Positions 19,301 through 43,566 of a stretch of 64,000 bases of DNA are shown in pieces. The position numbers and the translations under genes are program-made. The DNA is from Candidatus Thorarchaeota archaeon. GTDB taxonomy: Archaea; Asgardarchaeota; Thorarchaeia; Thorarchaeales; Thorarchaeaceae. Numbering within the stretch: the stretch's first letter is position 1; each line of letters begins with the position of its first letter. The stretch lies in NCBI GenBank assembly GCA_011364985.1, contig RDOC01000001.1:256001-320000 (forward strand), read 5' to 3'. The notes below the pieces were generated by a model. That model ran no database searches. It was not told where the DNA came from and worked only from the letters and a program-made list of their open reading frames with translations.

Positions 19301-19303
19301 CTT

Positions 19304-20602: not shown

Positions 20603-20753
20603 CTTTGAACACCTTGTATTTGCAGTTGTACCCTCTGCTCTTTAGTCCTGCCTAAAGGGATTTACGCAATGGCTATGCACATACTGCATCAGAGAAGTCC
20701 TATTATGCCAGATTTCCCTAATGAATCTTCAAAGATAATGGATCGAGATTGAG

Positions 20754-22202
20754 ATGGCAATTGAGAAACGCAACCGAACCAAAATTGTATGTACCATAGG
20801 GCCGGCCTCAAGGTCCGGAGAAACCCTAGCAAGAATGATTGAGGCAGGTATGGATGTTGCACGACTCAACCTGTCCCATGATACTCATGCAATCCACAGA
20901 AAGACCTTCGAAACCATTAGGTCAGTCGACGATTCGATCCCGATTCTATTTGATATTCAAGGCCCGAAGATCAGGATAGGCGATATGAAAAAGGCAGTAG
21001 AACTGCAGACAGGGGATTCCTTCACGTTATCAATCAAGGACTTTGTTGGGAACAGAGAGCGAGCATCAATATCGCACAAGGACCTTCCGAGGGATGTGAA
21101 ACCTGGGGATGTCATAGCTATCAATGATGGGATTGTAAGACTCAGGGTTAAGGAGATTGATGATGATGAGGTGCGTACTGAGATAACGCACGGTGGTCCC
21201 ATCTCAAGCAGAAAAGGAGTGAATGTACCAGGAATACGATTGTCTTGTGGAGTGCCAACAGAGAAAGACCTGAAGGACTTGGACCTCGCAGCTGAACTGG
21301 AGCCCGATCTAATTGCCATCTCCTTTGTTGTTGACGAGAACGACGTGAGACGCGTCAATAAGATTCTGAAATCGAATGGACCAAAGAATGTCGATGTGAT
21401 AAGCAAGATTGAGCATACTTTGGCTGTAAAGAATTATCCCGCCATTCTTGAGGAGTCACATGGTGTGATGATTGCCCGTGGTGATCTGGGTATAGAAGTT
21501 CCAATTGAAGAGGTCCCGATTCTTCAAAGAGACCTGATTCGCGAGGCAAACATGTGGGCTCGAGCAGCTATAGTTGCAACGCACATGCTGGAATCAATGA
21601 TACATGAGCAGATGCCCACCAGAGCTGAAGTAAGTGATGTTGCCCACGCCGTTTTTGATAGAGCAGATGCAGTGATGCTCAGTGGCGAAACGGCCATTGG
21701 ACACGATCCTGTTGGCGCCATTGAAATGATGAAACGCGTCGCAGGAAGGGCCGAGAAACGAATTACTCCCATCAAACCAGATGATATCACATCGCCAAAG
21801 AAGCTTATTGTGGAGGTCATAGGCAGCCTTGTCTACAATACAGTGGCCCTTCTTCCCGACAAGATTGGCGGGGTGATTACTGCAACCAGAAGCGGATTCA
21901 CAGCAAGATGGATCTCAAAGTTCAGACCACCCACGAACATCTATGCAGTCACCAACGATCCAGCAGTCGTAAGGCGACTTAGACTCTGGTGGGGTGTGTA
22001 TCCTGTGAAATACGACCAGGACATCCAAAGCGTTGATGACTTGGTTATGGAGGCAGTTTGCGCAGCCCATGAAAGAGAACTCATCAGTATAGACAAGGAT
22101 GTCGTATTCACATCTGGAGTGAGGCACATCCCTGGAAAGACTAATGTTGTTGGAGTGTTTCATGTGCGCGATCTGGTACAACTCCCCAAGTCTAGATACT
22201 GA
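20754..22202 (+). CDS. pyk: pyruvate kinase
   Basis: TKIVCTIGPAS, RLNLSH, KIE, ARGDLG, MLESM, PTRAEVSD, MLSGETA motifs. Confidence 0.98.
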   Translation: MAIEKRNRTKIVCTIGPASRSGETLARMIEAGMDVARLNLSHDTHAIHRKTFETIRSVDDSIPILFDIQGPKIRIGDMKKAVELQTGDSFTLSIKDFVGNRERASISHKDLPRDVKPGDVIAINDGIVRLRVKEIDDDEVRTEITHGGPISSRKGVNVPGIRLSCGVPTEKDLKDLDLAAELEPDLIAISFVVDENDVRRVNKILKSNGPKNVDVISKIEHTLAVKNYPAILEESHGVMIARGDLGIEVPIEEVPILQRDLIREANMWARAAIVATHMLESMIHEQMPTRAEVSDVAHAVFDRADAVMLSGETAIGHDPVGAIEMMKRVAGRAEKRITPIKPDDITSPKKLIVEVIGSLVYNTVALLPDKIGGVITATRSGFTARWISKFRPPTNIYAVTNDPAVVRRLRLWWGVYPVKYDQDIQSVDDLVMEAVCAAHERELISIDKDVVFTSGVRHIPGKTNVVGVFHVRDLVQLPKSRY

Positions 22203-22557: not shown

Positions 22558-25500
22558 ATGATGAACAGAAATCAATCTGCGGTGTTTCTTGTCACAATAT
22601 CAGCCGTTGTCTTGGCAACAACACTCCTGATTCTCTATTTCTTGTCCACCCTTCCACTGACCATCGGACCTATTGCCCTGCTGATCCCAGTCTCTATGGT
22701 TGCACTTACGTATCTTGGAATAAAGAATGATACAGAGAGAACATTTCGTATTGATATTGGGAATAGATTACCATGGGAATTGCTCATTGTTGGGATCTGG
22801 GCGGCTCTACTTATTCTGGCCCTATTGCCGAGAGAGACGATGAGCCTGATTTTTGTACCATGGGAAAGTCTGGATGTTTTAGACTTAATACTCTCCGTTT
22901 TCTTTTTGCCGCTCACTTCATTCTTTCCGGGTTATGCAATCCTGAAAGTGGGATTTGACGATATGGACCTTGGGATTCCAGTAAAGCTTCTGATAGCCTA
23001 TATTCTTAGTTGGTTCACCTCGGCTCTATCTGGCTATGTAAGTGTCCTGTTTTTCAGGAGCTCAGGTTTTGCAGGAACCATTCATCTAGCTTTAAGCATT
23101 ATTCTCCTTGCACTCCTTTCCTTGCGCATCTTACTTGAAACGCCAATAGAAGACTCTGAAACAATCGAGGTTCCATTAAGTCTAGTCTTAGTTCTCGTGC
23201 CCATCATCATCGTAGTATTGGCCTCTACTATAGTAAGCAACTTCCCGTTCATAGCCGTCCCCTACAATGACCAGTGGGTTATTTTCGGGGCCACTCTGAG
23301 AATGATGGACAGCACGGTCGCGTATAGTTTTCCGTACTACTGGCCTCAGCTGCATTATTCCACAGTACTTGGTATTAGCAGAATCAATGCTATGAATACC
23401 TACATGTTCCTGCCATTCTTCTCTATCCTAACACCTTTCTGTTTCTATTATTTTGCCAGAGCTTTTGTTGACAGCAGAATCGCAGTGCTTTCCACTCTTG
23501 TTTATACTCTTTTCAGTGGATTAGGATGGATTGCAATTATTGGCTTGACTACCATACAATATTCAGACCTCGCGTTTCTAGGTGATGAGATGGGACTGCA
23601 TCCAATGGTCAGGCCGTTATTTTTTATATATCCCAAGATCTTCTCATCTGCCTGCATCTTCATTGCGATGTATCTAGCCTTTAGAAAGAATAGGGGAAAT
23701 GGTAATTGGAAAACCCCTTTGTTGATTGGAACTCTAATCGCCATATCATACCTATGGCATTTACTTGAGGCGCTGTTGCTCATCTATATGCTAGTCCCAT
23801 TAGCGATTATTATCTATCGCGAGAGAGATTCGGTTAGGCTGCTAACCACAGGCTCCGCATTTGGCATGGTTCTAATTGCCATATTCGGGACGATGAACTC
23901 TGACATATGGAGCTCTAATTTTCCGAGGCTATTTCCGGTCTACCTATCACCCTTGGTCATAGTCGCCATATCAGCAATCATCATTTCATTTGTTGTGCTA
24001 TTGCTGAGAAGTAGAGTGTCGTTTGATTTAGGAAGATATCAAAGAATCACAGACATGGCATCCTCAAGAAGACTTGCAGGAGTAGTGTCTGGAGTACTAC
24101 TGATGATTAGTGCCGTTCTGGTTATTCAAGGACTCGCAGACCTCTATCAGAGTATATCTGACTTGTATGCGATGCGACTGAATTTGTATCCTGTGAAATT
24201 GGGCATATCACTCTTCCTTTTCGTTGCTGCGATTGGGATCGCTCATGAAGAATCAAGGCCCATGACGATTGCAATAACTTTCGTTGCAATCATCTTCTTG
24301 GTGGGGCATACTTATGGATACATTCTTTCGCTCACAGCGAGCGAGGGAAATACGATTCTTTTCCACGACCTTTCGATTCCAATTCTGCCGGAATGGAGAT
24401 TCGTTAGGCAGTATTGGCATTGGATCGCCCTAGCAGCAGGTATTGCTATTCATCGTATCATCTCTCTCGGACGAATTAAAATGCCTAGAATAAGGCCCCA
24501 GCTCCCCAAGATTGCATCAATCACAATCATACTTTGTATTTCGCTAGTTGGAGTATGGGATACGGTCTTGGTCACAGACTATGTGATGAGGGATACATAC
24601 GCTAGTATCAGCCAAGAGGAACTAGGAGGGATATCTTTCTTGAATAACCTGCCGTCAATTGGAACTTGCCTAGCTCCGGGACTATCGATATCAAATCCAC
24701 GAATAGTGACAAGGTTCACCAAGTTAATCCTTGATTCCTACAATAATGACGTATTCTCTTCGACTACTCCCGAAGAGCTTGCGTTGTTGGCATCCATTCT
24801 ATATAGGGAGTCGATTGGAATGGTCCCTGTGTACTATTTCGAATTGGACAGGCTACGTAACACATTGGACTACCATGCTGAGGAGTATTTCTATCAATAC
24901 ATAGTGTCATTTCTTCAATTTATGTATCAGGATGAATTCTCTAGGGTGGGAAGTGTCCCGACATTTTTCCCACCTGACGATTCACCGAGGATCTTACTGC
25001 TTGTCCCTAGTCTTCATGACAGTAGCTACTCTGAGTATTCGGATGCATTCTACACGCATTTCTTGCCTGCAAATATGCTCATGTTCTCGGGCACATCCTA
25101 CGATGTTCGAACCGAATCGGATCTCAGGATTGATGAACAGACGAGTTTTATCATCTCAAGCAATCTGTCTCTAGCCTCTGAACCGTACATCGTGTCATGG
25201 ATTAACAACGGCAATACCTTCATTTTGCTAAACACAACTATGCCTTATGCTTCCTCAATTCGATTGGGAGCTGCTGACGAATTGGTGGCAGCTGGTTCGG
25301 AAGTCAATTGCACTTCTGTGGAGGTGGACTACTCACTAGAGGTATCTCCGGATTGGAGTATCTTGGCGTGGTACTACAACAAGGATGTTCCAGTATCACC
25401 TCTTGCCACCTCGAAGAAATCTGGTGCTGGGGAGATATGGACACTAAAGATGTGGCCATTTACAAACCTATTGAATCCTATGTTCGGGCAGGATGTGCCA

Positions 25501-26139
25501 TGGCTGGTCGCGAATGCACTGACAAAAATCCCTTTTCTTCTAAGCTTACCTAGATTTCATGATGTAAGTGAGCAAATCGAACTTGAAATAGTATATAGCC
25601 CTCTGAATTGCGTGGGCAATATTTCCATTGAGAGCACAAGTCTTGTTCTTCGGAATTGTCCAATAACCAGTTTTGTCTTAGATTATCAAAATGGCACTCT
25701 ATTTGAACATCCTCTTGAATTGGCCACAGTAATCAGGAATTTGGCCCTACGAGGAACCTATAGCATTTCAATCTCTACTAGTTCATGTAGATTATCGACC
25801 AATCATTATACTTGGTATAGTACGTTGTCTTCATCTGATGCTATTCATGTTGAAATTGACTTGAGTGCCGGATCACTAGCCAGATTTGACCTAATAAGCA
25901 GCGCACAAACAAATTCGATTGAAATTGGCGAGGGGATGATTCATTTTGTCTTGGACTCGCCTAACAGACAAGTGGCATTGAACTTGAAATCTGCAGTGTT
26001 TTCGGTGGAGGGACAAGTCAGCTACTTTGATAGGAATTTGCAGCGAAGAAGTGCTAGTGGGTTGATTGAATTTCAGATACTTGGCAGTGGATCTAGTATT
26101 ATTTGTAGCGAATGGAGTGTTGAGCACCCAAGTCCATAG
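22558..26139 (+). CDS. large polytopic membrane protein, putative GT-C glycosyltransferase with extracellular C-terminal domain
   Basis: ~670-aa multi-TM region (FFPGYA, NDQW in the first large loop), then a soluble beta-rich region with N-x-S/T sequons. Paralog of 28336-32262. Confidence 0.65.
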   Translation: MMNRNQSAVFLVTISAVVLATTLLILYFLSTLPLTIGPIALLIPVSMVALTYLGIKNDTERTFRIDIGNRLPWELLIVGIWAALLILALLPRETMSLIFVPWESLDVLDLILSVFFLPLTSFFPGYAILKVGFDDMDLGIPVKLLIAYILSWFTSALSGYVSVLFFRSSGFAGTIHLALSIILLALLSLRILLETPIEDSETIEVPLSLVLVLVPIIIVVLASTIVSNFPFIAVPYNDQWVIFGATLRMMDSTVAYSFPYYWPQLHYSTVLGISRINAMNTYMFLPFFSILTPFCFYYFARAFVDSRIAVLSTLVYTLFSGLGWIAIIGLTTIQYSDLAFLGDEMGLHPMVRPLFFIYPKIFSSACIFIAMYLAFRKNRGNGNWKTPLLIGTLIAISYLWHLLEALLLIYMLVPLAIIIYRERDSVRLLTTGSAFGMVLIAIFGTMNSDIWSSNFPRLFPVYLSPLVIVAISAIIISFVVLLLRSRVSFDLGRYQRITDMASSRRLAGVVSGVLLMISAVLVIQGLADLYQSISDLYAMRLNLYPVKLGISLFLFVAAIGIAHEESRPMTIAITFVAIIFLVGHTYGYILSLTASEGNTILFHDLSIPILPEWRFVRQYWHWIALAAGIAIHRIISLGRIKMPRIRPQLPKIASITIILCISLVGVWDTVLVTDYVMRDTYASISQEELGGISFLNNLPSIGTCLAPGLSISNPRIVTRFTKLILDSYNNDVFSSTTPEELALLASILYRESIGMVPVYYFELDRLRNTLDYHAEEYFYQYIVSFLQFMYQDEFSRVGSVPTFFPPDDSPRILLLVPSLHDSSYSEYSDAFYTHFLPANMLMFSGTSYDVRTESDLRIDEQTSFIISSNLSLASEPYIVSWINNGNTFILLNTTMPYASSIRLGAADELVAAGSEVNCTSVEVDYSLEVSPDWSILAWYYNKDVPVSPLATSKKSGAGEIWTLKMWPFTNLLNPMFGQDVPWLVANALTKIPFLLSLPRFHDVSEQIELEIVYSPLNCVGNISIESTSLVLRNCPITSFVLDYQNGTLFEHPLELATVIRNLALRGTYSISISTSSCRLSTNHYTWYSTLSSSDAIHVEIDLSAGSLARFDLISSAQTNSIEIGEGMIHFVLDSPNRQVALNLKSAVFSVEGQVSYFDRNLQRRSASGLIEFQILGSGSSIICSEWSVEHPSP

Positions 26140-28335: not shown

Positions 28336-31300
28336 ATGGGAGATTGGTATGAAGCAATTGGCTATCAGCAGAGAAGAAGTGAGAAACTAGCAAGACATCT
28401 ATTGAATGCAATTATGGCAGCAATATTCCCGTTTCTGATAGTTATCCTTCTTCCTTATGCAATCCCCTTCAGATTCGGATTTGCCGTCATTGTTTCAGTC
28501 ATTGCAGGACTGACTGCAATCATCATCACAGACACTGAAACCATTATTGTCTATTCTAATACGATAAAGAGAAGTCAACTAATGTTTGTTATGCTCTATA
28601 CAGGGCTAATCCTCATTACTGCATTGTCATTGGGAACCCCTTTCGAACCGGTTGTTCTGGCATCCAGAGATCTGACTCGCTATTTGCCCAGTTTCCTAGT
28701 AACGGTATTGCTTACATCGTTCATGCCAGGATATGCAATTGTTGTATCTGTTATGGAAGATGCAACAGACACCACAGAGAGATTGGTGTATTCAATTCTA
28801 AGTAGCTTCTTGGTTACAGGATGCATCGGATTCATCTCGTGGAATTTGAGTGCTATGGCACTCTCCAAGCCGATTCTTGTCGCAACGAATCTTCTAATTC
28901 TGGCAGTATACGTGATCTACAACATAATCAGTGAAAGGCCCGATTCGATTTCATCGGAGCGTTCCAAGACTAAAATGAGCATAATGAATGCAATTGTGCT
29001 TGTTGTGCTATCTCTATTCTTGTATTTGACATATTTCACTGTGCACAATATATTCGAATCATCACTCCCAATTGTAGGGGATGAGTTCGATCATGTTGCG
29101 TATATTGCAAAGCTTCTTTCTAATTCAGTCACATGGCAAGAAGATAAGCTGGGGATACTCACAACACCGTCATACCCGTACCTTTTCCATCTGTTCATGG
29201 CCGTCTGTGTGACTATATCTGGAATCGCTGTTGCAGATTATCTCCTGCTCAGTGCCTTGATACTACTACCCTTACCAATGTTGGCATTCTATGTCATGAG
29301 TAAGACAGTAACTGGAAATTCCAAGCAGTCCATTGTTGCTACTGTACTCTTCCAAGTTACTTCCGACTTCGGTTGGCTCATTGCCATTTCTTCATACTCA
29401 GGCACCAATGACCTTCAGACAATCCTAAGTGTATCAAATGATACCTGTAGCATTATCTTTTCTCTGTGGCTGCCGATTATTGTTGCACCCTATCTGATAG
29501 ATCTAGCCGCGTTCTTGTTGATTATGGGACTGATGTTCAACAAGAATGCAGACTCAGGGAAACTAGTGACAATCTCGACTATTCTTCTTATTATTAGCAT
29601 ACTTAGCCATATGGAGAAAGCATTAATCATAGCGGGACTCACTGGTATCCTTTCACTGATTGGAGTCATAACAAGTAAACGGGGCATTAGGACAAAAGAG
29701 ATAGGAGCTGCCCTAGTTCTCGCCTCGATAGTTGTTATTGTCATCGATCTAGTGGCCCTCAGAAGGCTGTTCACAGCATATTACATAGCCACCTTGGTTG
29801 TTTGTATTGTTGCAGGGGAGTTGGCCTATCTCGTAAGCGACAGGCATTTCAATTCCAAATCCATTCAAAATTGGCTGACTTACAATTATAAACCAACAGC
29901 AATCGTTGCGACTTTGCTTTTTGTGGGAACTGCATATTTGGAGTTCATCTTTGGTAAGACTCCAGGTGCACATTGCTCCTGGATTCCCCTCTTTCTTATT
30001 CCACTTAAGCTAGGTATTGTCGGAGTACTAGCCGGTATTTGGCTCCTAAAATTGGACTTTCGCAACGCCAGAAAACACGGAGTTCTACTTGTGCTGGTGT
30101 CCTGTGTAATTCTGGGGGAGATAGGTCTATATCACGCGGGCATACCATTTGCATTGATCGTAGGCTCCATTTTGGATGAGTTCAGATACGTCAGAGATGT
30201 TGTATGGCCGATTTTTTCATTAGCTGGGTCTGTGGCACTCTTCGTGCTAGTGGAAAGAATACAGAGGTTCCGCGCTCCATCCTTTATGAGAAAGATAACC
30301 AAAGGATTGGTTCCAAGTCTGGTCATTGGATTGCTCCTTGCCTCAAGTATACCATCCCATCTACTGAAGATTCAGTACAATGCTGCTAATAGCGGGATAA
30401 ATCAAAACATTGAGCCGGTTGTAGAATTCATGGATACACTGAATATCACAGATGGAGGCACAGTTTATGCCCCCGCAAATCTGGCAAGAAGTGTCGCTGC
30501 AGTCACCGGAGCAATTGTATATTCTCCATCAACGTCAGTTTATGGTCCATTGCTTTCCGACGGGTCAGACATATACACAACACTGTGGCTTTTAAATTAC
30601 CTCAACGTGCAATACATGATTCTCGACAAGCCAAATTCGATAGTGGGAATTGGACCTGTTGCAGAGATGTCACCTATCCTGTATAGCGATAGTGCATATC
30701 GGGTCTGCCAAGTACTCACACAGTCAGGCCCCACATTGACATCAAGTACCGCTCTTGTTGATGACCATGTCGTAGAACGCTTTGGAGAGGAAATTGGATT
30801 CGGCATGAAGCCAAGTTGGCAAGAATCATTTTCGAATGTTTCGAACTGGGTGGCAGCTCCCATGACGTTCACTAATGTCTTAGAGTACTCGTTGACGACA
30901 AATGAGGACGGGGAAGCTCAGCTGATGGCATCTGGAGTGGCAGGAAGCAAAACGGTCATGCTATATCAGATGCTCTTTGATGCTGGACTACAAGTGGAGA
31001 AGGGAACGTATATTGGTGTTAGGTTCAAAACTTCGCCCGGTGCAAAATTACTTGTTCAGATTCTTTACAACGATAGGACAATGAGCAATGCGCGCCTTGG
31101 AAGCACACCGTATCTGCAGTCAGAAGACTGGATATCATTAACCACATATCTTGATAATGTTGGGGCTAACGTAACAGGGCTAAGAATCGGTCTTACCAAC
31201 ATATACAATGAAGATGTATCCGAGTTGAATGGGAGTATTGACTATCTAGTGATTAATAGAGAGGATTCTAATCGTGCTGATGCGGCCATACTTCTTTCCA

Positions 31301-32262
31301 TGACGAATCTCAATTTCACGACTATATCAAGTTGGGATTCCATCCTTGAAGCTCAGCCTTCAGTAATCATAGCATCAGAGGATTCAACTTACGGGAATCT
31401 GACTAGCTTCTTCGCACGCATCAATGAAGACTCAAGAGTGATTCTTCTCGGAAATCTAAATGAAAGCAGTAGCATCCAAGACTATATCGACATCACAAAC
31501 CTCAACTGCTCAACAGTAGCTGATTCCCTTGTTGCATCTGATGAAACATGGAATATTCCTTCTATGCGAGTTGATTGCATATCAATATCAGGCGGACTGG
31601 TGCTTAGTACATATGCTGGAAATCAGAACCTGCCCTTTCATGTAAGATTATTTGTCAACGACACAAGGCAAATAGACTATCTGAATGTGTGGCCTCTTAT
31701 CGAAGCTATAAGGGGAACAGGTAATGAAGACGCTTTGGGAGAAGCACAGCTGGCATTGACCGAATACCTCCAGATTCAGTTGATGCTTCCAAGTTGCTCA
31801 TATATTGAACGAAAATTCTATTTGAAGAACTCAGGATTTGTTAGATATGCTGGTACTCTTGAAATAGAAACAACAGGATTGATTCTGCCGCATATCTTAC
31901 AGAATGAATCCTTAGGAAGCTTAACTAACGCCAGCATTTTGGTGGTTGAAGGGGAAGCGAGATTTGAGCCCGCACAATTTGGCTACTTGATCATCTCTAT
32001 ATCCGGCAGAATTCAGGTTTATGGCAATGCTGGTATTCTGAATGATCTTGAGGTGGAAGAGTGGAGTGCAATTGCTAGGATTGTAAGAATTTCAGCCAAT
32101 GCCTCAGTTCATTTCAGCTCCTTCACATCATCTTTCCCATATGCTTTCGAGATATATTCATCTGAATATGTATTAGAAGGCCTCAGTAATCTGTCGTATT
32201 TGCCTATGTCTCAAGGCGTCCTGCTCATCTATGCAAACGACCCGACAGTATTTGGTTGGTAG
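28336..32262 (+). CDS. large polytopic membrane protein, putative GT-C glycosyltransferase with extracellular domains
   Basis: FMPGYA...ERLVYSILSS, GDEFDH acidic loop motif, YPYLFH; ~630-aa soluble C-terminal region rich in sequons. Confidence 0.65.
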   Translation: MGDWYEAIGYQQRRSEKLARHLLNAIMAAIFPFLIVILLPYAIPFRFGFAVIVSVIAGLTAIIITDTETIIVYSNTIKRSQLMFVMLYTGLILITALSLGTPFEPVVLASRDLTRYLPSFLVTVLLTSFMPGYAIVVSVMEDATDTTERLVYSILSSFLVTGCIGFISWNLSAMALSKPILVATNLLILAVYVIYNIISERPDSISSERSKTKMSIMNAIVLVVLSLFLYLTYFTVHNIFESSLPIVGDEFDHVAYIAKLLSNSVTWQEDKLGILTTPSYPYLFHLFMAVCVTISGIAVADYLLLSALILLPLPMLAFYVMSKTVTGNSKQSIVATVLFQVTSDFGWLIAISSYSGTNDLQTILSVSNDTCSIIFSLWLPIIVAPYLIDLAAFLLIMGLMFNKNADSGKLVTISTILLIISILSHMEKALIIAGLTGILSLIGVITSKRGIRTKEIGAALVLASIVVIVIDLVALRRLFTAYYIATLVVCIVAGELAYLVSDRHFNSKSIQNWLTYNYKPTAIVATLLFVGTAYLEFIFGKTPGAHCSWIPLFLIPLKLGIVGVLAGIWLLKLDFRNARKHGVLLVLVSCVILGEIGLYHAGIPFALIVGSILDEFRYVRDVVWPIFSLAGSVALFVLVERIQRFRAPSFMRKITKGLVPSLVIGLLLASSIPSHLLKIQYNAANSGINQNIEPVVEFMDTLNITDGGTVYAPANLARSVAAVTGAIVYSPSTSVYGPLLSDGSDIYTTLWLLNYLNVQYMILDKPNSIVGIGPVAEMSPILYSDSAYRVCQVLTQSGPTLTSSTALVDDHVVERFGEEIGFGMKPSWQESFSNVSNWVAAPMTFTNVLEYSLTTNEDGEAQLMASGVAGSKTVMLYQMLFDAGLQVEKGTYIGVRFKTSPGAKLLVQILYNDRTMSNARLGSTPYLQSEDWISLTTYLDNVGANVTGLRIGLTNIYNEDVSELNGSIDYLVINREDSNRADAAILLSMTNLNFTTISSWDSILEAQPSVIIASEDSTYGNLTSFFARINEDSRVILLGNLNESSSIQDYIDITNLNCSTVADSLVASDETWNIPSMRVDCISISGGLVLSTYAGNQNLPFHVRLFVNDTRQIDYLNVWPLIEAIRGTGNEDALGEAQLALTEYLQIQLMLPSCSYIERKFYLKNSGFVRYAGTLEIETTGLILPHILQNESLGSLTNASILVVEGEARFEPAQFGYLIISISGRIQVYGNAGILNDLEVEEWSAIARIVRISANASVHFSSFTSSFPYAFEIYSSEYVLEGLSNLSYLPMSQGVLLIYANDPTVFGW

Positions 32263-32547: not shown

Positions 32548-33693
32548 GTGATTGACTTGAGCATAAGTATCTGCTTCGTATCAGGACTGCTGCCGCCAAT
32601 CTCTGTTGGAGGTGTGGAAAGGTACGTCCTAAATCTTGTAGAGGAACTCCCGAATACAAAGTACAAATCGCTTATCATTAGTCATCATTATCGTGGATTA
32701 GGAAAGCTTGAAAGAAAACACAATTGCCGTATCTATCGAGTTGGCTGGAACCCATTGCCATATAGTCAGGTTCGCATAATCGGTTCTATCTCCAGAGAGC
32801 TTAGCAACTTAACGTCCCTTCTTGACAATGTAAAGAATCATTGGTCATTCGATATTGTTCATTCTCAATTTGGTGAGTTCAGTGATGTTGTGTATGGGAC
32901 AAAGATTTGCAGAGAAAACGAGGCAAAGCATGTGGTTACCATTCATGGGAGATTCGGTACGCAATTCGAAGATATAAGAATGAATTCCAGAAGACTAGAT
33001 GTTCTCAGAAAAGCGGATTACCTAATTACGAATAGGCAGCAAACATTTCAGTACTTGTTGAAAATGGGCTTTGAGAAACTTGCTCTCCTTCGCAATCCTA
33101 TACCTGTTTCGAAATACAAACGCCCAGATCAAGAAACACCCCCAAGAGAAAGGAAGAACATCGAACTCCTTTTCTTGGGTCGCCTAAGTCTACGAAAAGG
33201 ACCATTTTTGGCAATTCAAGGATTTGCCTATGCCGCGAAGAAAGACCCCAATCTGAATCTCTGCATGGTTGGTGGTGGTGTGCTTGAAAAGCAACTAAGA
33301 GCATTTGCTGAGAAGATGGACTTGAAAGATAGGGTCCATTTTACGGGACCTCGGCTTGATATCAGACCATTTCTTTGGAAATCGGATGTGTTCCTTGCGA
33401 CATCTCCGACAGCGAACTCACCGAGCCTTTCACTTCGAGAAGCTATGGCCGCAGGTATACCTGTTATCGCGACTGATGTAGAAGAAACCGGTACTGTTGT
33501 AAGAGATGGGAAAACAGGGCTGCTAGTAAAACCCAATCCAAGGGCTCTAGGAGAGGCTATTCTTAAACTGACTGGAGATGAAAACATGATGAAACGATAT
33601 CGAATGGCTGCGGCCAAACAAGCTGAAATCGAGTTTGATCTCAACGGGTACGTTAGCGCTTTGGACAGAATCTATGATGCAATTATGGAGTAG
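32548..33693 (+). CDS. glycosyltransferase family 4
   Basis: GGVERY, VVTIHG, FLGRLSLRKG, N-x7-E(AMAAGIPVIATDV). Stop overlaps the murA start (TAGTG). Confidence 0.92.
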   Translation: MIDLSISICFVSGLLPPISVGGVERYVLNLVEELPNTKYKSLIISHHYRGLGKLERKHNCRIYRVGWNPLPYSQVRIIGSISRELSNLTSLLDNVKNHWSFDIVHSQFGEFSDVVYGTKICRENEAKHVVTIHGRFGTQFEDIRMNSRRLDVLRKADYLITNRQQTFQYLLKMGFEKLALLRNPIPVSKYKRPDQETPPRERKNIELLFLGRLSLRKGPFLAIQGFAYAAKKDPNLNLCMVGGGVLEKQLRAFAEKMDLKDRVHFTGPRLDIRPFLWKSDVFLATSPTANSPSLSLREAMAAGIPVIATDVEETGTVVRDGKTGLLVKPNPRALGEAILKLTGDENMMKRYRMAAAKQAEIEFDLNGYVSALDRIYDAIME

Positions 33694-34988
33694 TGAAGTT
33701 CCTTATGGTGAAATCTCTGAGAATTAGGGGTAAAGAGCCGCTTGATGGAAACGTAATGATTAGCGGCAGTAAGAATGCTGCAATTCCTTGCATTGCAGCA
33801 GGAATCCTCACCGATGAACCCATAATACTTCATAACGTTCCTGCAATTGAAGACATACATACTCTATGTGAAATTCTTGCAGCCATGAGTGTGAAGGTGT
33901 CATATGATGATGAGAGGACTACTCTGAGGATGCAGTGTATCAACCCTTCTTCCGATATACCTCCTTTGCTTTCCACGAAAATGAGAGGTGCCACTCTTCT
34001 TATGGGAACTCTCCTGGCCCGTTGTGGAGAGGTGATTTTCGAATCCTATGGGGGATGCCCCATTGGGGAAAGACCAATTGACTACCACCTTGATGCATTT
34101 AGGAAACTTGGAGCCAAGATAGATACGAAAGGAAACCAAATCAGAGTATCTGCGAAGAAACTCAAGGGAACACTCATTGAACTCCCATTTCCAAGTGTCG
34201 GTGCTACCGAAAATTCGATACTTGCAGCATGTTGCGCCAAAGGCATGACCACAATAGTCAACATGGCAGTTGAGCCAGAAGTCATGAATCTTATTGAGAT
34301 GCTTGGCAAAATGGGAATGCAGTACACCTTTGATGTGGCCAAATCACGAATTGATATCGAAGGAAAGACAAATCTTCAAGGCATAAGGCATTCGATAATT
34401 CCAGATAGACTTGAGGCGGGAACGTATTCTGTTGCAGCGGCAATCACCAAAAGTAGCATAACGATTCATCCTGTTGTAGAAGCTCACATCAGTCAAGTCA
34501 TTCAGGCGCTAAGGGATGCACGAGGGACTATTGAACTGGAATCCGGAATGACCATGAGAGCAGATTTCTCCGACATATGCTTAAGTCCATTCAAAATCGA
34601 AACCGGACCCTTTCCAGCCTTCCCTACTGACCTGCAACCACAGTTTACATCGCTAAGCACTCAAGCAGAAGGCAGGACTTCAATCATTGAAACGGTCTTT
34701 GAAAATCGATTTGGGCATGTTCCCGAGTTGCAGAAGATGGGAGCCAAGATCCAGATCTCTCAAAGAGAATTAACAATAGATGGACCTGTGAGTCTCAAAG
34801 GTGCACATGTAACGGCAACAGATATCCGGGGAGGAATGGCGCTGATTCTTGCCGCGCTTTGCGCAGAGGGTTCAACTACTGTCAATGGATTTGAAATCAT
34901 TGAAAGGGGTTACGACTCTCTAGAGAGCAAATTGAGCAATCTAGGAGCGAATATTGAGGTGATAGAGGACGAGGAACAACATAAGTGA
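33693..34988 (+). CDS. murA: UDP-N-acetylglucosamine 1-carboxyvinyltransferase
   Basis: SGSKNAA, MRG, GGCPIGERPIDYH, PSVGATEN, EPEV, PDRLEAGT, FPTDLQ, FENRF, TDIRGG, ERGY all present. Confidence 0.95.
   Translation: MKFLMVKSLRIRGKEPLDGNVMISGSKNAAIPCIAAGILTDEPIILHNVPAIEDIHTLCEILAAMSVKVSYDDERTTLRMQCINPSSDIPPLLSTKMRGATLLMGTLLARCGEVIFESYGGCPIGERPIDYHLDAFRKLGAKIDTKGNQIRVSAKKLKGTLIELPFPSVGATENSILAACCAKGMTTIVNMAVEPEVMNLIEMLGKMGMQYTFDVAKSRIDIEGKTNLQGIRHSIIPDRLEAGTYSVAAAITKSSITIHPVVEAHISQVIQALRDARGTIELESGMTMRADFSDICLSPFKIETGPFPAFPTDLQPQFTSLSTQAEGRTSIIETVFENRFGHVPELQKMGAKIQISQRELTIDGPVSLKGAHVTATDIRGGMALILAALCAEGSTTVNGFEIIERGYDSLESKLSNLGANIEVIEDEEQHK
34956..34963 (+). promoter_or_regulatory. archaeal Shine-Dalgarno GAGGTGAT
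   Basis: Lies 5 nt upstream of the in-frame ACG at 34969 of the FrhB-like gene. Confidence 0.5.
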
Positions 34989-36264
34989 AGTAGTCCGAGA
35001 TAATCAATGCGTGGGGTGTGGCGCCTGCGAATTGGCGTGCCCTCATCAGGCCATAGCAATGGCAGTTGAACATAATCGAGGTGTTTACAACGCGATCGTG
35101 GATGAAACAAAATGCGTTTATTGCGGAGCTTGCATCGACGTTTGCTTTGGTGCAGCAATAGAACATCACGAACCAAAGGAATCTTTGCAGCGTCTTATTC
35201 AAAAAGGAAGAGGAATGGAAGTAGCCCGCTATGGATATGCCACAGATTCAAATCTCAGGTTTCGGGCATCATCGGGAGGGGCAGTTACAGCTCTGCTGAC
35301 TCACCTGCTCGATGAGGGGCATATTGACGCTGCAATTGTCGTGAAACTTGCGAGCACTGATCCAGCTCTTGGAGTTTCATTGATTGCCGAGTCCAAAGAA
35401 GCCATTCAAGAAGCAATGGGGTCGAAGTATTGTCCTGTGAGGATCAGCACTGCCCTAAAGCAGATGAAAACGGGAGCCAAGTATGCATTTGTTGGACTGC
35501 CTTGTCAGATATACGCAACTAGGAAACTTCAGGAGAAGGGAAGACTAAATGGCGAAATCAGTATCTATATTGGATTGTTTTGTGGAGGCACGCTTAGCTA
35601 TCATGGAACGAGGTATATTCTCAGACAGAATGATGTTGAATTCAGTAATATACAGGCAATCGGATACAGGGGATTCGGATGGCCTGGACGATTCTATGCA
35701 GAAACGAAAGATGATGTTATTTCTCTCCCATTTGTTACGTATTGGCCAAATATAGCTAGATGGTTCTATCTTGATCGTTGCCTGACATGTCTTAGTGGAC
35801 TGAACCTAAATGCGGATGTCAGTTTTGGGGACTTTTTCTCAAGGGAACATATTTCAACTGATCCTCTTGGCACATCTGTTATGTTAGTCATGTCTGGAAT
35901 TGGAGCTGAAGCTCTATCATCAACTGAGAACGCAGGTCATTTGCATCTCAAATACACAAGCATCAAGAAGGTCATTGAATCACAATCATCCATGTTTCTC
36001 AAGCATAGGAGATACCCAACAAGACTTCTGATATTGAAATTGCTCAGAATGGGAAGACCCTCAAAGGGCCGGTATGAATCAAAACTAGGTTTCAGAATTA
36101 GAGACGCTTTGGATGAGCTTCTTCTTCATTCAGGTCGAGCCCTCGCCTCTAGACCGGGACTATGGCCCTTTTTTGATGTCTTTAAGAGTCTCATGACTGT
36201 GTATAGTCGGATTGTGATGATTATTGGCAAGATTATTGTGCGAAATTCAAGTCTGAATCTCTAG
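34969..36264 (+). CDS. FrhB/FdhB-family (F420 hydrogenase/dehydrogenase beta-like) oxidoreductase with N-terminal 2x[4Fe-4S] domain
   Basis: CVGCGACELACP and CVYCGACIDVC, then ASSGGAVTALL, GSKY, VGLPCQ, IGLFC, YRGFGWPG, RCLTC, ADVSFGD. The first Cys lies upstream of the track's GTG 35011, so the start is extended to 34969. Confidence 0.85.
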   Translation, partial: TRNNISEVVRDNQCVGCGACELACPHQAIAMAVEHNRGVYNAIVDETKCVYCGACIDVCFGAAIEHHEPKESLQRLIQKGRGMEVARYGYATDSNLRFRASSGGAVTALLTHLLDEGHIDAAIVVKLASTDPALGVSLIAESKEAIQEAMGSKYCPVRISTALKQMKTGAKYAFVGLPCQIYATRKLQEKGRLNGEISIYIGLFCGGTLSYHGTRYILRQNDVEFSNIQAIGYRGFGWPGRFYAETKDDVISLPFVTYWPNIARWFYLDRCLTCLSGLNLNADVSFGDFFSREHISTDPLGTSVMLVMSGIGAEALSSTENAGHLHLKYTSIKKVIESQSSMFLKHRRYPTRLLILKLLRMGRPSKGRYESKLGFRIRDALDELLLHSGRALASRPGLWPFFDVFKSLMTVYSRIVMIIGKIIVRNSSLNL

Positions 36265-36317
36265 GTAGTCTTGAATAAGGATAGTTCCCTATGCCTTAGG
36301 AAATACAGGAAAGCGTT

Positions 36318-37856
36318 TTGCATGTAGAAAATACCGCCGAGGTGCAAGGTAGCTTGGATTTGTCCAACGTAATCAAGAGTGCTGTTTTCATATATATAGG
36401 AGGATTGGTCACGAATATTCTGGGTTTCGTATTCTGGCTAGTTGCATCTAGTTACGTACCCCCAGATGTTGTTGGATCGGCTTCGGCCATCATAGCCCTT
36501 CAGGCACTTCTCATGACCATAATGACCATAGGTCTTCCTACAGGATTGCGTCGCTTCGTTGGAAAAGGCGGCAGTGAAGAAAGATATGATTTGATTTCTG
36601 AATACTTCGCAACAAGTATGGGCGTTAACCTCCTTCTCAATCTGCCTGTTTCACTGATTCTGATAGCTGCACCCGCTCTTCACTATAGTGGTTATGGATT
36701 ATCTGCAATAGAACTTGCATTTGTGGGGACTCTTATTCTACTTAGTTTTTGGGCACCAACTCTAGTTTCATTGTTCGATTCATTGTTGAAAACTGAAATC
36801 ACTGCCCTAGCCCAAGTACTCTCTTCGATTGTAAAACTTCTTCTCGGGCTAATGATGCTGATTCTCGGTTATGGATTCTTGGGAGTCATGATGGCATTCA
36901 TAGCGGCATCAATTACAACTGATTCAGTATTGCTATACCACGCGCGGAACATGTTCAGAGAATTTGGATATCAACCTAGGTTTGAATCAGACCGTATAAG
37001 AGAACTAGTGGAATCTGGACTGCCTGCATGGATTCCGAATATGTTGACGATAGCAGGACAATCCGTTGCCGTTCTTGTAATCTATGGATTAGTTGGAGAG
37101 AGCCAAACGGGCCTCTATTACTTAGCTTTCGCCATGGCACAAGTTGTATACACGATACCAACAAGCATTCAGAGTCTAATGTACCCAGTTTTGAGTGGTA
37201 TGAAAAGCGGACGAGAGGATGCCATTCGCCGCACTACACGTGTTTCTCTTATAGCCACAGCGCCCATTGCATTAGCTGTCGCATTGTATTCTGAAATTCC
37301 ATTCTCCGTAATAGGACCAGCATACTCAGATGCAGGTCCTCTTCTGGCAATACTCGTAGTCGGAGCGATGTTCTGGTCAATTTATGTTGGATATTATGGA
37401 TATCTATATGCAATAAAGGAATACAGGCATGTGACTGGATTGGGACTTGTTCTTAATGGAACAAGGCTGGCTTTGTATTTCCTTCTTGCTTCGTTGTTTG
37501 GTGCCATGGGAGTCGCCTTTTCCTTCATCGGGGGAATTCTCGTTGCAATGATCGGCCTTGCGTTTTCCTCAATTAGCATTGGTTACAAACCAGATTGGAA
37601 GAAGTACTTCCTAGCAATTATTATCCCGAGTACTTCCGTCATACTTGTCTGGCATCTCAGTGTAGAATGGATACTGGGAATTCCATTCATTCTTATTTGG
37701 TCATTCATCTTGTATGGAAGACTGAAGATTATGACGAGGACAGACATCTTTGAGGTGTTCTGCGGTTTGTTCACTCCTGAGAAAGCCTTGAGTATAGCAT
37801 TGCGTCTTAGGCCAGTATCAAGAATAGTGTTTGGAAAACAGAACGTAGATGAATGA
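36318..37856 (+). CDS. oligosaccharide flippase (MOP/Wzx family)
   Basis: ~14 TM; GLPTGLRRF, TGLYYLAF, SLMYPVLS, FGAMGVAFS motifs. Confidence 0.85.
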   Translation: MHVENTAEVQGSLDLSNVIKSAVFIYIGGLVTNILGFVFWLVASSYVPPDVVGSASAIIALQALLMTIMTIGLPTGLRRFVGKGGSEERYDLISEYFATSMGVNLLLNLPVSLILIAAPALHYSGYGLSAIELAFVGTLILLSFWAPTLVSLFDSLLKTEITALAQVLSSIVKLLLGLMMLILGYGFLGVMMAFIAASITTDSVLLYHARNMFREFGYQPRFESDRIRELVESGLPAWIPNMLTIAGQSVAVLVIYGLVGESQTGLYYLAFAMAQVVYTIPTSIQSLMYPVLSGMKSGREDAIRRTTRVSLIATAPIALAVALYSEIPFSVIGPAYSDAGPLLAILVVGAMFWSIYVGYYGYLYAIKEYRHVTGLGLVLNGTRLALYFLLASLFGAMGVAFSFIGGILVAMIGLAFSSISIGYKPDWKKYFLAIIIPSTSVILVWHLSVEWILGIPFILIWSFILYGRLKIMTRTDIFEVFCGLFTPEKALSIALRLRPVSRIVFGKQNVDE

Positions 37857-39546: not shown

Positions 39547-40974
39547 TCAAGATAACTTAGAGATTATGAACTTCAGCTTCCCTCCCTGACTGGGAATGTC
39601 TTCGGTTGCTTCCATTAGAACAGGAACTTGTTGCTGCGTTTTCTCCAGCAGGATGTTTCTGACTTTTCCTATTGCGCCACGATAGTCTCTATAAGATTTA
39701 TTGGGAACAAAACGAAGAACGATCGAGTAGTCTGCATTTTGAATGAATTGAAACATTTTTACAGCTTCCGGACAAGCATCGAAGATGGTGGTGAGGAAAT
39801 CGCCACTCAATACGGTACCATTTGGAAGTCGTATCATATCTGACTCACGCCCTCTAACATGGTCCATAAGTGGAAAAGGAAGACCACATGGACACTGCCC
39901 TTCAATTAACCGACCGCGGTCCTCGTTCAGATATCGGATTATCGGGAATGCATAGTTCTCTAAATCTGTTACAACAATATCTCCGAACTCTCCCTCTGCA
40001 CATATCTCCCCATTCTTCACGAATTCGATATGGCGTATATCAGATTCTATGTGAAGACCAGTATGTTGGTTGCATTCAGCGGCAAGCCAGTAGACTTCTC
40101 CGCAACCGTATTGATCATAGACCGGAGCATTGAAGACTTTTTCAACAAGGTTTCGTTGAACCTCACTTATAGGAGAAGAGGTTAACCATACAGCTTTGGG
40201 CGGTGGAAGTTCTATGCAGTGATCATCCACGTACTCGGCCAGATGACATATGGCTCCAACGTAACCTTGTAATAGTCGAGGCTTGATGCATTTGTATTTT
40301 CTTATGAAACATCGTATGGAACTCTCTGTCATTGAAGCCGCGTCAAGTAGTACTCTTTTTGTCGGCCACCAGAATGCACAATACGCTAGGTCTTGAAATC
40401 TGGATTGGCGAACATCCCTGAAAACAAAAGCACCGTCATCCCAGGGTGCCAAATCCCATCTTGCCAAGAGCCTCCATCCAATTGCATGCAAAGGAACTCT
40501 TCTGTCGTGATATACTCTGAGTGGTATGCCGGTAGATCCACCAGTAGTCGACACTTGGAAATATCGCTTGTCCACTTCCATAGCCATGATATCGGCCAAG
40601 TTCTCTCGAATATCGTTCTTCGTGAGGAAAGGTATTTTCAGGAAATCATCAGGCGTTTTTACGTCATCTGGAATTATGCCTGCAGCCTTGAATTTCCTTC
40701 TATAGAAAGGGACTGATTTGTATGCATAACGGAGCAGTTTCTTTCGCTTTCGCCAGTTCAATTCTGCTAGTTCTCTTGAACTAAGACATTGGTTTCTTAT
40801 CAGGCGTTCATAGTACGCTGAGGAGTTGGTGTTCAGAAGAAAGAATTTTGAGTAGAAGTACGAACTCGTGAGTGAACGAAACAATCGATACTTGGCTCCT
40901 TTTAGGTCTTGATTCCATTCTAATGAGCAATATAAATGATAATAGCACTGCTGCAAACAGAGGCATGTTTTCAA
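39547..40974 (-). CDS. phenylacetate-CoA ligase/CapK-family adenylate-forming enzyme
   Basis: VPFYR, TTGGSTGIP, YDQYGCGE, PIIRY, GRESD, GGKLK. Start uncertain, likely up to ~30 codons downstream. Confidence 0.88.
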   Translation of the reverse strand: MKTCLCLQQCYYHLYCSLEWNQDLKGAKYRLFRSLTSSYFYSKFFLLNTNSSAYYERLIRNQCLSSRELAELNWRKRKKLLRYAYKSVPFYRRKFKAAGIIPDDVKTPDDFLKIPFLTKNDIRENLADIMAMEVDKRYFQVSTTGGSTGIPLRVYHDRRVPLHAIGWRLLARWDLAPWDDGAFVFRDVRQSRFQDLAYCAFWWPTKRVLLDAASMTESSIRCFIRKYKCIKPRLLQGYVGAICHLAEYVDDHCIELPPPKAVWLTSSPISEVQRNLVEKVFNAPVYDQYGCGEVYWLAAECNQHTGLHIESDIRHIEFVKNGEICAEGEFGDIVVTDLENYAFPIIRYLNEDRGRLIEGQCPCGLPFPLMDHVRGRESDMIRLPNGTVLSGDFLTTIFDACPEAVKMFQFIQNADYSIVLRFVPNKSYRDYRGAIGKVRNILLEKTQQQVPVLMEATEDIPSQGGKLKFIISKLS

Positions 40975-42459: not shown

Positions 42460-43566
42460 TTGTATCTTGAGATTCAATGGGGAGTATTGACAGCTGCATG
42501 TACTCTGCCTATGTATGAAGATTTAAAGAGAAGGTTTGACATCGAAAAGGTCAGCAGAATCATGGGTGTGGGCAGGGTAAAGGAATTCAGTGTTTACATA
42601 GAGAACTCAAAGCCGCTAAACCAGAAACTCAACGATGGTTTAGGTCACATACAATGGAGACAAATTATCAGAACTGATGACCACGTATTTCTGAAACCAA
42701 ACTTCACTTTTCCATCATACCGTTATGGTGTGACGACATCTCCGTGTCTTCTTGAAGCTCTATTAGGAATTCTGAAGAATCGAGCTTCAGAAATAACAAT
42801 AATAGAATCAAATGGTGGAAACAATGTCTTCACAGCTGACGAAGCCTTCAGAGGACATGGCATTCCAAAGCTGTGCAAAGAATTCGGAATAGACGCTGTA
42901 AACCTATCAGACTGTCCTTCTACAAAGGCTAAGGATAAGATTGGTTCAAGAACGGTAGAAGTGAGCGTACCCAGATTTCTGCCGAATGAAGTGGATTGTT
43001 TTGTATGTGTGCCCGTTCTGAAGGTACATGCAATGACCTTGGTTTCGCTGGGAATCAAGAACCTGTGGGGGTGTCATCCAAATCCCATGAGATGCCTCTA
43101 TCACGAGGATATCGACAAGAAACTTGCGCTTCTCACCAAGCTCTGGAATCCGCGAATCTGCATTATAGACGGGACCTATGCACTAGACGGACATGGACCA
43201 ATGTTTGGCCAACCTGTTGAAATGAATCTGCTGATTGTTGGGAACAATGTTGTAGCAAGCGATAGCGTCGGAGCGAGTGTGATGGGCTTCGATCCCCATC
43301 ACATCAAGCACATAAGAGTGGCGTCGGAGGAGAAACTCGGTCCTATCGATTTAAGGTCGATTAGAGTAAACACAGATTGGAGAAGGTTCTGCAGGGTTTT
43401 CTCGTTCAAGAGAACGCCGCTTGATTATTTATCTTTGGTACCATTTCACAGCGAACTTCTTGCAAAGATTATTTTCAACTCACCATTCACTTCCGGGATT
43501 CGAAGAATGGTAGACATAATCAGGACTTCTGACGAAAAGGAAGACCTAAGAGGGTACGTAAATTAA
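42460..43566 (+). CDS. DUF362 domain protein
   Basis: LKPN, GVTTSP, VPVLKVH, LGIKNLWG, IIDG..GHGP, ASD, MGFDP. Probable start ATG 42562. Confidence 0.82.
   Translation: MYLEIQWGVLTAACTLPMYEDLKRRFDIEKVSRIMGVGRVKEFSVYIENSKPLNQKLNDGLGHIQWRQIIRTDDHVFLKPNFTFPSYRYGVTTSPCLLEALLGILKNRASEITIIESNGGNNVFTADEAFRGHGIPKLCKEFGIDAVNLSDCPSTKAKDKIGSRTVEVSVPRFLPNEVDCFVCVPVLKVHAMTLVSLGIKNLWGCHPNPMRCLYHEDIDKKLALLTKLWNPRICIIDGTYALDGHGPMFGQPVEMNLLIVGNNVVASDSVGASVMGFDPHHIKHIRVASEEKLGPIDLRSIRVNTDWRRFCRVFSFKRTPLDYLSLVPFHSELLAKIIFNSPFTSGIRRMVDIIRTSDEKEDLRGYVN

Follow-up and report, generated by a model that had tools for sequence, protein, structure and literature searches.

A bacterial-type MurA in an Asgard archaeon belongs to a gene cassette that probably modifies surface glycans

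We analyzed a 64,000-nucleotide stretch of DNA (hereafter the window; positions 256,001 to 320,000 of contig RDOC01000001.1, or G000:C11:256001-320000 in our numbering) from the metagenome-assembled genome (MAG) of a Candidatus Thorarchaeota archaeon. This genome (G000) comprises 1.7 Mb in 22 contigs and is 74% complete. The window encodes MurA, the enolpyruvyl transferase of bacterial cell-wall synthesis, within a cassette of five + strand genes (28.3-37.9 kb) whose other products are a 1308-aa protein, a GT4 glycosyltransferase, an FrhB-like iron-sulfur (Fe-S) flavoprotein, and a flippase. We consider it rather likely that this is a surface-glycan modification cassette that makes an amino sugar bearing a lactyl ether, at the stage of the nucleotide sugar, with neither MurB nor murein. 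A preliminary description of this DNA had proposed that MurA was recruited to make an enolpyruvyl- or lactyl-N-acetylhexosamine for surface glycans. Our analysis supports that proposal and contradicted nothing in it: MurA is canonical and is the sole mur gene found, the cassette is inherited as a unit, and the reductase belongs to a clade whose usual partners are PF04230 pyruvyl transferases. Gene identities, assigned with Pfam and NCBIfam profile searches, are as follows.

28336..32262, + strand: large membrane protein, 1308 aa; no Pfam match, described from hydropathy
32548..33693, + strand: GT4 glycosyltransferase (GT-B, retaining-type); PF00534 and PF13439
33705..34988, + strand: MurA, 427 aa from ATG 33705; TIGR01072, NF006873, and PF00275
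34956..34963, + strand: Shine-Dalgarno-like GAGGTGAT within the MurA tail, 5 nt before ACG; read from the sequence
34969..36264, + strand: FrhB-like Fe-S flavoprotein, 431 aa if ACG is the start; PF04422, PF04432, and Fer4
36318..37856, + strand: Wzx-type (MOP superfamily) flippase; PF01943 (Polysacc_synt)

Results

The window encodes a canonical MurA

The MurA protein scored 462 bits against TIGR01072 (equivalog cut-off, 392.7) and 479 bits against NF006873 (cut-off, 297), and its PF00275 match covers positions 2-417 of 417. Misannotation of an AroA protein was rejected, as the aroA model scored 79 bits versus 462 bits for murA. The best solved relative is a MurA structure (6q03; E 4e-96). 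Identity to housekeeping MurAs of Bacillota is 44-47%, which is as high as between bacterial phyla, and the window's genome contains a single MurA. Since the protein that begins at ATG 33705 lines up at its N-terminus with E. coli MurA and with the relatives, we place the start of MurA there, 11 nt from the GT4 stop codon (33691-93). The preliminary description had reported four co-oriented genes, the first three overlapping; the orientation and the open reading frame (ORF) coordinates stand, while the overlap between GT4 and MurA does not.

We checked individual residues by alignment to E. coli MurA from NC_000913. The window's MurA and the 15 other members of its clade all retain K22, N23, R91, C115, R120, H125, S162-V163-G164, and E188, and likewise D231, R232, T304, D305, R331, D369, R371, and R397 (16 of 16). 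The catalytic Cys codon is TGC at 34056, so that each residue named beforehand (K22/N23, C115 at this codon, R120, D305, R331, D369/R371, and R397) is present. Position D123 is Asp in 11 and Asn in five of the 16 proteins. Across the whole alignment, conservation among 39 bacterial MurAs reaches at least 90% in 65 columns, of which the clade keeps 60. The sole striking clade-specific change near the active site is at the equivalent of E. coli P112 in the catalytic loop (window positions 34038-34040), which is Pro in 38 of the 39 bacterial proteins and Tyr or Phe in 15 of 16 cassette MurAs. On sequence grounds, the protein appears to be an ordinary UDP-N-acetylglucosamine (UDP-GlcNAc) enolpyruvyl transferase, and it would probably be sensitive to fosfomycin.

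One alternative is that the cassette works as we propose with a MurA whose acceptor has shifted to UDP-GalNAc, UDP-ManNAc(A), or another nucleotide, as in NikO, so that the product is not muramic acid. The glycan genes around the cassette include a UDP-ManNAc-dehydrogenase-like enzyme and several epimerases and dehydratases, and one related cassette locus (L005) carries a UDP-GlcNAc 2-epimerase-type gene. The clade-specific changes, most prominently that at P112, are compatible with such a shift, and MurA homologues have been recruited outside peptidoglycan before (NikO; PMC6801904). However, the residues that contact UDP-GlcNAc (N23, R91, R120, S162-G164, D305, R331, D369, and R371) are among those kept in all 16 proteins, and both the score above the equivalog cut-off and the identity to Bacillota MurAs argue for the ordinary acceptor. 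We therefore regard a changed acceptor as unlikely.

The cassette recurs and its MurA forms a single clade

A search for synteny of murA with frhB-like, GT4, and flippase genes, suggested in the preliminary description, recovered the cassette (large membrane protein, GT4, MurA, FrhB-like protein, and usually the flippase) on at least seven other contigs. A genome of the same family that is 95% complete (G329; cassette locus L012) has the identical gene order, beginning with a 1302-aa protein and followed by GT4, MurA, the FrhB-like protein, and the flippase. The order large protein, GT4, MurA, and FrhB-like protein is found in L005, L006, L008, L009, and G329, with the MurA and FrhB-like genes overlapping by 4-17 nt; L005, L006, L008, and L009 contain the closest MurAs from public metagenomes (46-51% identity). 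A MurA/FrhB-like pair is also encoded by consecutive accessions (MEM2507462.1/MEM2507463.1) in a MAG labelled Nitrososphaeria. This pair, together with MurA and FrhB-like matches on contigs of equal length, brings in at least two further contigs. Among 400 genomes of the phylum, three contain MurA and two contain the cassette, and MurA is absent from all 16 congeners. The cassette is thus a rare accessory trait, not a general archaeal feature.

A MurA phylogeny, which had likewise been suggested as a check, gave a bacterial origin. Against a background of housekeeping bacterial MurAs from genome contigs, the cassette MurAs form one clade (Shimodaira-Hasegawa-like approximate likelihood ratio test [SH-aLRT] support, 90) inside the Bacillota-type MurAs. 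As there is one such clade, the tree indicates a single transfer of MurA from bacteria, probably with later spread among archaea. The MurA and FrhB-like trees contain the same subgroups, suggesting that the two genes travel together. Among longer proteins, none was a fusion of MurA to an FrhB domain and three were unrelated fusions, which is weak evidence.

The third MurA of the phylum, in G156 (L013, G156:C176:2000-12915), is on a 12.9-kb contig that lacks the cassette. Its neighbors encode an eight-repeat DUF285 protein, a Band 7 protein, an orotidine monophosphate-decarboxylase-like protein, and a NUDIX protein. Because this MurA branches outside the cassette clade and has unrelated neighbors, it is likely to be a contaminant or a separate event.

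The reductase comes from a clade linked to pyruvyl transferases

The relatives of the FrhB-like protein point to its function. The four next-closest proteins (31-36% identity, one from Methanoculleus) are each encoded directly downstream of a PF04230 gene; the nearest relatives follow PF04230 domains or are fused to them, and in three cases the same flippase comes next. Among 18 further full-length homologues from Asgard genomes, 12 adjoin PF04230 or are fused to it; MurA adjoins none of them. The MurA-linked FrhB-like proteins form one clade (SH-aLRT 100), which is nested in a larger clade (100) whose other members are PF04230-linked where their context is known. PF04230-linked members of the enclosing clade include proteins from G314 and G392, which belong to the same family as the window's genome. 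In G392, the genes are arranged as large membrane protein, PF04230, FrhB-like protein, and flippase (38% identical to that of the window), presumably the ancestral layout; G041 and G314 have PF04230, FrhB-like protein, and flippase in the same order. The MurA cassette loci contain no PF04230 match. From the nested clade and the layout in G392, it appears that a GT4 and a Bacillota-type murA displaced the PF04230 transferase of an older archaeal cassette, and that the reductase, flippase, and membrane protein stayed.

Frames of 725-874 aa that contain an FrhB-like module are present in L052, L055, L058, L060, and L064 (Asgard genomes G122, G162, G236, G234, and G183, respectively). In L052, L058, and L060, the extra part matches the PF04230 profile, and these are natural pyruvyl-transferase/FrhB-like fusions.

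What the two kinds of cassette have in common is informative. MurA and the PF04230 transferases have unrelated folds, yet both use phosphoenolpyruvate (PEP) and can make enolpyruvyl ethers. As MurA makes only an enolpyruvyl ether, this ether would be the substrate class common to both cassette types, which would put the reductase in the position of MurB. Most likely, then, the FrhB-like reductase plays MurB's role. PF04230 enzymes of the CsaB/WcaK type are thought to modify sugars that are already on the carrier. Since MurA instead modifies a nucleotide sugar, a dedicated GT4 would be needed for the modified donor, explaining why the MurA cassette has an extra GT4.

The FrhB-like protein is a predicted three-cluster flavoprotein

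The cassette FrhB-like gene is the sole FrhB_C gene in the window's genome. Its product consists of an N-terminal 2x[4Fe-4S] ferredoxin domain and an FrhB/FdhB core with a third cluster (PF04422 and PF04432; 104 and 76 bits). Twelve Cys are conserved in the FrhB-like proteins, 11 of them invariant and C14 nearly so; C179, C205, C271, and C274, the four cluster Cys of the FrhB/FdhB core, and the SSGG motif of the flavin site are invariant in the alignment. The conserved Cys are predicted to hold two ferredoxin-type clusters and the FrhB cluster. An AlphaFold2 (AF2) model built on 69 sequences had a mean predicted local distance difference test score (pLDDT) of 91.7, and its Foldseek matches were the FrhB-type subunits 8riu_B, Fsr 7np8, 6qgr_B, and 4ci0_C (E 1e-22 to 1e-16), with Arabidopsis HCAR also among them. 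The window's genome has no match to TIGR00179 (MurB). Given this and the PF04422/PF04432 and FrhB-type model matches, the protein is at most an analogue of MurB, not a homologue. Complex prediction for MurA and the FrhB-like protein gave a score of 0.00, which counts neither for nor against binding.

The electron donor is probably ferredoxin rather than F420. A search of G000 and G329 for the one F420 biosynthesis gene tested, cofD, was negative, which makes ferredoxin the likelier donor, and the N-terminal 2x[4Fe-4S] domain also suggests ferredoxin.

The start of the FrhB-like gene is unusual. Its frame contains no ATG, GTG, or TTG between TAG 34963 and the codon for the first cluster Cys (TGC 35008), and use of the first canonical start (GTG 35011) would remove the first Cys of the first [4Fe-4S] motif. 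In the alignment, ACG 34969 occupies exactly the position of the ATG in the homologues from L008 and L009, a column in which Met accounts for at least 90% of residues. A strong GAGGTGAT lies 5 nt upstream of this ACG, and in L006 the GTG start of the homologue is preceded by the same GAGGTGAT. Behind the one-base difference (T to C) could be a start codon of an unusual kind, a gene that has been weakened, or a variant in the assembly or the population. The overlap of MurA with the FrhB-like gene that the preliminary description reported exists only if translation starts at ACG 34969.

We also weighed whether MurA is active and the FrhB-like protein carries out some other chemistry, leaving the glycan with an enolpyruvyl (carboxyvinyl) or otherwise processed group. 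The reactions of the family are varied (F420 reduction, sulfite reductase coupling, HCAR, and BciB), any activity of this clade is predicted from sequence, and the ACG start might mean that the reductase is dispensable here. Against this, every cassette seen has kept the reductase and couples its translation to that of MurA. Moreover, its clade switched between unrelated PEP-dependent transferases while keeping its position, which is hard to explain without a common product. Vinyl reduction also has a precedent within the family, as the FAD/Fe-S enzyme BciB (annotated as 'frhB') converts a vinyl to an ethyl group with reduced ferredoxin, not F420, as the electron source (PMC4836224). We consider a different chemistry improbable and continue to favor reduction of the enolpyruvyl ether.

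The other cassette proteins fit a glycan assembly and export role

By hydropathy, the large protein has ~17-20 predicted membrane helices in its first ~680 residues, followed by a ~620-residue soluble part. Homologues of 1302-1322 aa are encoded directly upstream of GT4 in L006, L008, L009, and L012, and the cassette large membrane proteins share an invariant 'GDEF..H' loop motif. The protein has no Pfam match, even at E = 1. Feature matches to DUF6541, PTPS_related, and DUF6311 membrane proteins all scored <0.9 and are leads only, and AF2 on the first 700 residues (pLDDT 48) was too poor for a fold search. The protein is probably a GT-C-like glycan transferase or polymerase that acts outside the membrane. 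A second very large, multi-pass membrane protein without a Pfam match (1193 aa) is encoded at 22558-26139, and the pair brackets two short-chain dehydrogenase/reductase-type epimerase/dehydratase genes. The similarity between the 1193-aa and 1308-aa proteins is marginal (BLASTP E 0.026; a short LTSF.PGYAI motif).

Orthologues of the GT4 (39-44% identity) lie directly upstream of MurA in L005, L006, L008, L009, and L012. The cassette GT4 has the motif N-x7-E instead of the usual E-x7-E, and N/D-x7-E is found in all five aligned cassette GT4s (Asp in L006). E-x7-E is retained in four other GT4s of the same glycan island. Loss of the first Glu may accommodate a carboxylate on the donor sugar.

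The flippase scored 49.5 bits against PF01943 (cut-off, 28.2). Its identity to the flippases downstream of pyruvyl-transferase/FrhB-like pairs in G392, G041, and G314 is 36-44%, and its position is the same in G329.

The cassette resides in the genome of an Asgard archaeon

The cassette is ~290 kb inside a 471-kb contig. The small subunit (SSU) rRNA of the window's genome scored 943 bits against the archaeal model, and genes for the E and C subunits of an A/V-type ATPase open the window. Elsewhere on the same contig, outside the window, is a gene for a eukaryote-type actin (G000:C11:432205-433308; L080), which scored 443 bits against PF00022; none of 14 control prokaryote genomes had a PF00022 match. 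Eukaryote-type actin is a hallmark of Asgard archaea. From the SSU rRNA, the ATPase subunits, and the actin, the host is an Asgard archaeon, and the genes flanking the cassette are archaeal. The tetranucleotide profile of the cassette correlates with that of the whole genome (r = 0.94), placing it at the 89th percentile among the genome's own 5.3-kb windows. A chimeric join to bacterial DNA, the concern raised in the preliminary description, is unlikely because the composition of the cassette matches the host genome, and we rejected it on this ground and from the Asgard-type actin on the same contig.

A broader possibility is that the genes are not functional host biology, being mis-assembled or mis-binned bacterial DNA or the degenerating remnant of a transfer. 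In its favor, this MurA has a bacterial origin and few genomes of the phylum encode one (three of 400), the G156 MurA on its short contig may be a contaminant, and the FrhB-like start is non-canonical. Yet the composition is indistinguishable from that of the genome, and the cassette is mid-contig between archaeal genes, with actin on the same contig. Four ORFs are intact and the catalytic residues are conserved; another genome of the family and the MAG labelled Nitrososphaeria have the same cassette; and the nearest relatives of the flanking FrhB-like and flippase genes are in Asgard genomes. An artefact or decaying remnant is very unlikely.

The cassette lies in a glycan island of ~40 kb that contains many GT4 and GT2 genes, sugar epimerases and dehydratases, a nucleotide-sugar dehydrogenase, a PMT_2-type GT-C protein, the large membrane proteins without Pfam matches, and a second flippase. 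The dehydrogenase-like enzyme and the epimerases and dehydratases mentioned above in connection with UDP-ManNAc are encoded here. With glycan genes around the cassette and archaeal markers in the host, its placement in an archaeal surface-glycan island holds.

Several genes in and around the island may be of interest. Phosphoglycerate mutase, enolase, and pyruvate kinase, which catalyze PEP-making and -consuming steps, are encoded at the island edge (18059-22202); this may be coincidence. On the - strand, 1.7 kb from the flippase, 39547-40974 encodes a 475-aa PaaK/F390-synthetase-like adenylating enzyme, identified by a sub-cut-off NCBIfam match and without a Pfam match. Such an enzyme could amidate or acylate a sugar carboxylate; its gene was not seen on the cassette contig of G329. 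A DUF362 gene is near the cassette in both G000 (42460-43566, + strand) and G329 (L012 3050-3997, - strand, directly after the flippase), and a LarA-like protein encoded at 3590-4876 of the window has a weak DUF362 match as well.

A murein pathway was not found

MurB, Mur_ligase_M, MurG, and penicillin-binding protein (PBP) transpeptidase had no match in the window's genome, which was searched as a whole at its 74% completeness, and the only MraY candidate was a 52-bit, AglH-type match (cut-off, 192). In each mur-family search, 9-12 of 14 control genomes scored above the cut-off. The earlier remark that murB, Mur ligase, mraY, and murG are missing from the window therefore extends to the genome, and a full mur/dcw pathway was not found elsewhere in it. 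In the 95%-complete G329, searches for MurB, Mur ligase, and MraY were negative as well. That MurA is the first step of a complete peptidoglycan pathway encoded elsewhere, and builds a murein-like wall, is extremely unlikely: although the window's genome is incomplete, these absences in two genomes, set beside the positive controls, led us to reject a full murein pathway.

Discussion

We propose the following pathway. MurA would transfer enolpyruvate from PEP to O-3 of UDP-GlcNAc. In the FrhB-like protein, electrons would travel by way of the two ferredoxin-type clusters and the third cluster to a flavin, and the protein, as gene linkage and phylogeny suggest, would reduce the C=C of the vinyl ether to give a lactyl ether. 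The product would be UDP-N-acetylmuramic acid or its (S)-epimer. The cassette GT4, with Asn in place of the donor-pocket Glu, would add this acidic sugar to a polyprenol-linked glycan, which the Wzx flippase would export and the GT-C-like large membrane protein would transfer or polymerize outside the cell. No peptide stem would be added and no murein would be made. We infer the product, the lactyl configuration, the GT4 donor, the electron donor, and the final acceptor (S-layer or other). A stronger form of the proposal, that some Asgard and other archaea make genuine N-acetylmuramic acid (the R-lactyl ether of GlcNAc) on surface glycans through a ferredoxin-driven Fe-S flavoprotein that is independent of MurB, and that this reductase family is the missing lactyl-ether enzyme in many bacteria and archaea, is tentative, and we are inclined to doubt it in full.

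Several points weigh against our interpretation. The FrhB-like gene lacks a canonical start in this genome and may be poorly expressed, or the sequence may contain an assembly error. The functions of the cassette members are predicted from their genes, and the substrate of the reductase is deduced from gene neighborhood only. The acceptor in the PF04230 cassettes is probably a lipid-linked sugar, so a change of substrate class by the reductase would be required. Lastly, the window's genome is 74% complete, which makes its absences provisional; for MurB, Mur ligase, and MraY they are backed by the 95%-complete G329.

The cassette resembles the bacterial MurA/MurB pair in having what is a true MurA by every sequence criterion, and in the proposed flavin-mediated reduction of a vinyl ether. 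It differs in that the reductase is of the FrhB family, with three predicted [4Fe-4S] clusters, rather than of the NADPH/FAD-dependent MurB fold. In addition, the archaeal cassette was found without Mur ligases, MraY, MurG, or PBPs, and its product is proposed to be destined for the GT4 and a flipped glycan.

A closer parallel is provided by the PF04230 and FrhB-like pairs and fusions of Klebsiella K66 (wcqF and HG203), Methanoculleus, and Asgard archaea, which share with the cassette the reductase clade, the gene order, the setting in a glycan locus, and often the flippase family. By contrast, our cassette uses MurA (EPSP-synthase fold) and an extra GT4, and the modification would occur at the nucleotide-sugar stage. 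The function of the PF04230/FrhB-like pair is itself something that we only infer. The K66, K22, and K37 types of Klebsiella carry 1-carboxyethyl ethers. These are among four K types that have pyruvyl-transferase genes yet unpyruvylated capsules; K66 has a pyruvyl transferase and a 'coenzyme F420 hydrogenase', and K22 and K37 have a pyruvyl transferase and a nitroreductase (PMC4616057). The locus described here adds an in situ swap of transferases, which ties the MurA and PF04230 cassettes together.

BciB and HCAR are, like the cassette reductase, FAD/Fe-S enzymes of the FrhB family, and HCAR is a structural match. They differ in acting on tetrapyrroles, in being distant (15-18% identity for HCAR), and in having no link to sugars. 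Lactyl ethers are also found in E. coli O-antigens, as lactyl-GlcNAc in O69 and O150, lactyl-Glc in O124/O146, and lactyl-Rha in O58 (PMC7685785). The product that we expect falls in this class, as an N-acetylhexosamine with a 1-carboxyethyl ether outside peptidoglycan. These lactyl ('glycolactilic acid') sugars are bacterial; neither their biosynthetic enzymes nor archaeal examples are established in the literature searched.

For archaea, one survey found only six MurA hits and calls their role unclear, and describes the pseudomurein pathway as using Mur-type ligases and MraY-like enzymes without MurA and MurB (PMC10117817). Pseudomurein, made by Methanobacteriales and Methanopyrales, is likewise an archaeal envelope pathway with bacterial mur-gene ancestry; our cassette is the reverse, with MurA only and no ligases. 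Our literature search found no description of murA in Asgard archaea or Bathyarchaeota, nor of an enolpyruvyl/carboxyethyl reductase in polysaccharide synthesis.

The cassette shows a bacterial cell-wall gene domesticated by archaea for glycan decoration, and it offers an explanation for the sporadic archaeal MurA hits whose role was termed 'unclear' in that survey (PMC10117817). It is also a natural experiment from which a function can be suggested for the widespread, uncharacterized PF04230 and FrhB-like pair, and it provides a candidate non-homologous analogue of MurB and a candidate for the biosynthesis of lactyl-ether sugars. Muramic acid serves as a bacterial marker in sediments, soils, and fossils and, in textbooks, as what separates bacterial envelopes from archaeal ones; if archaea can make muramic acid or its epimer, both uses would need qualification.

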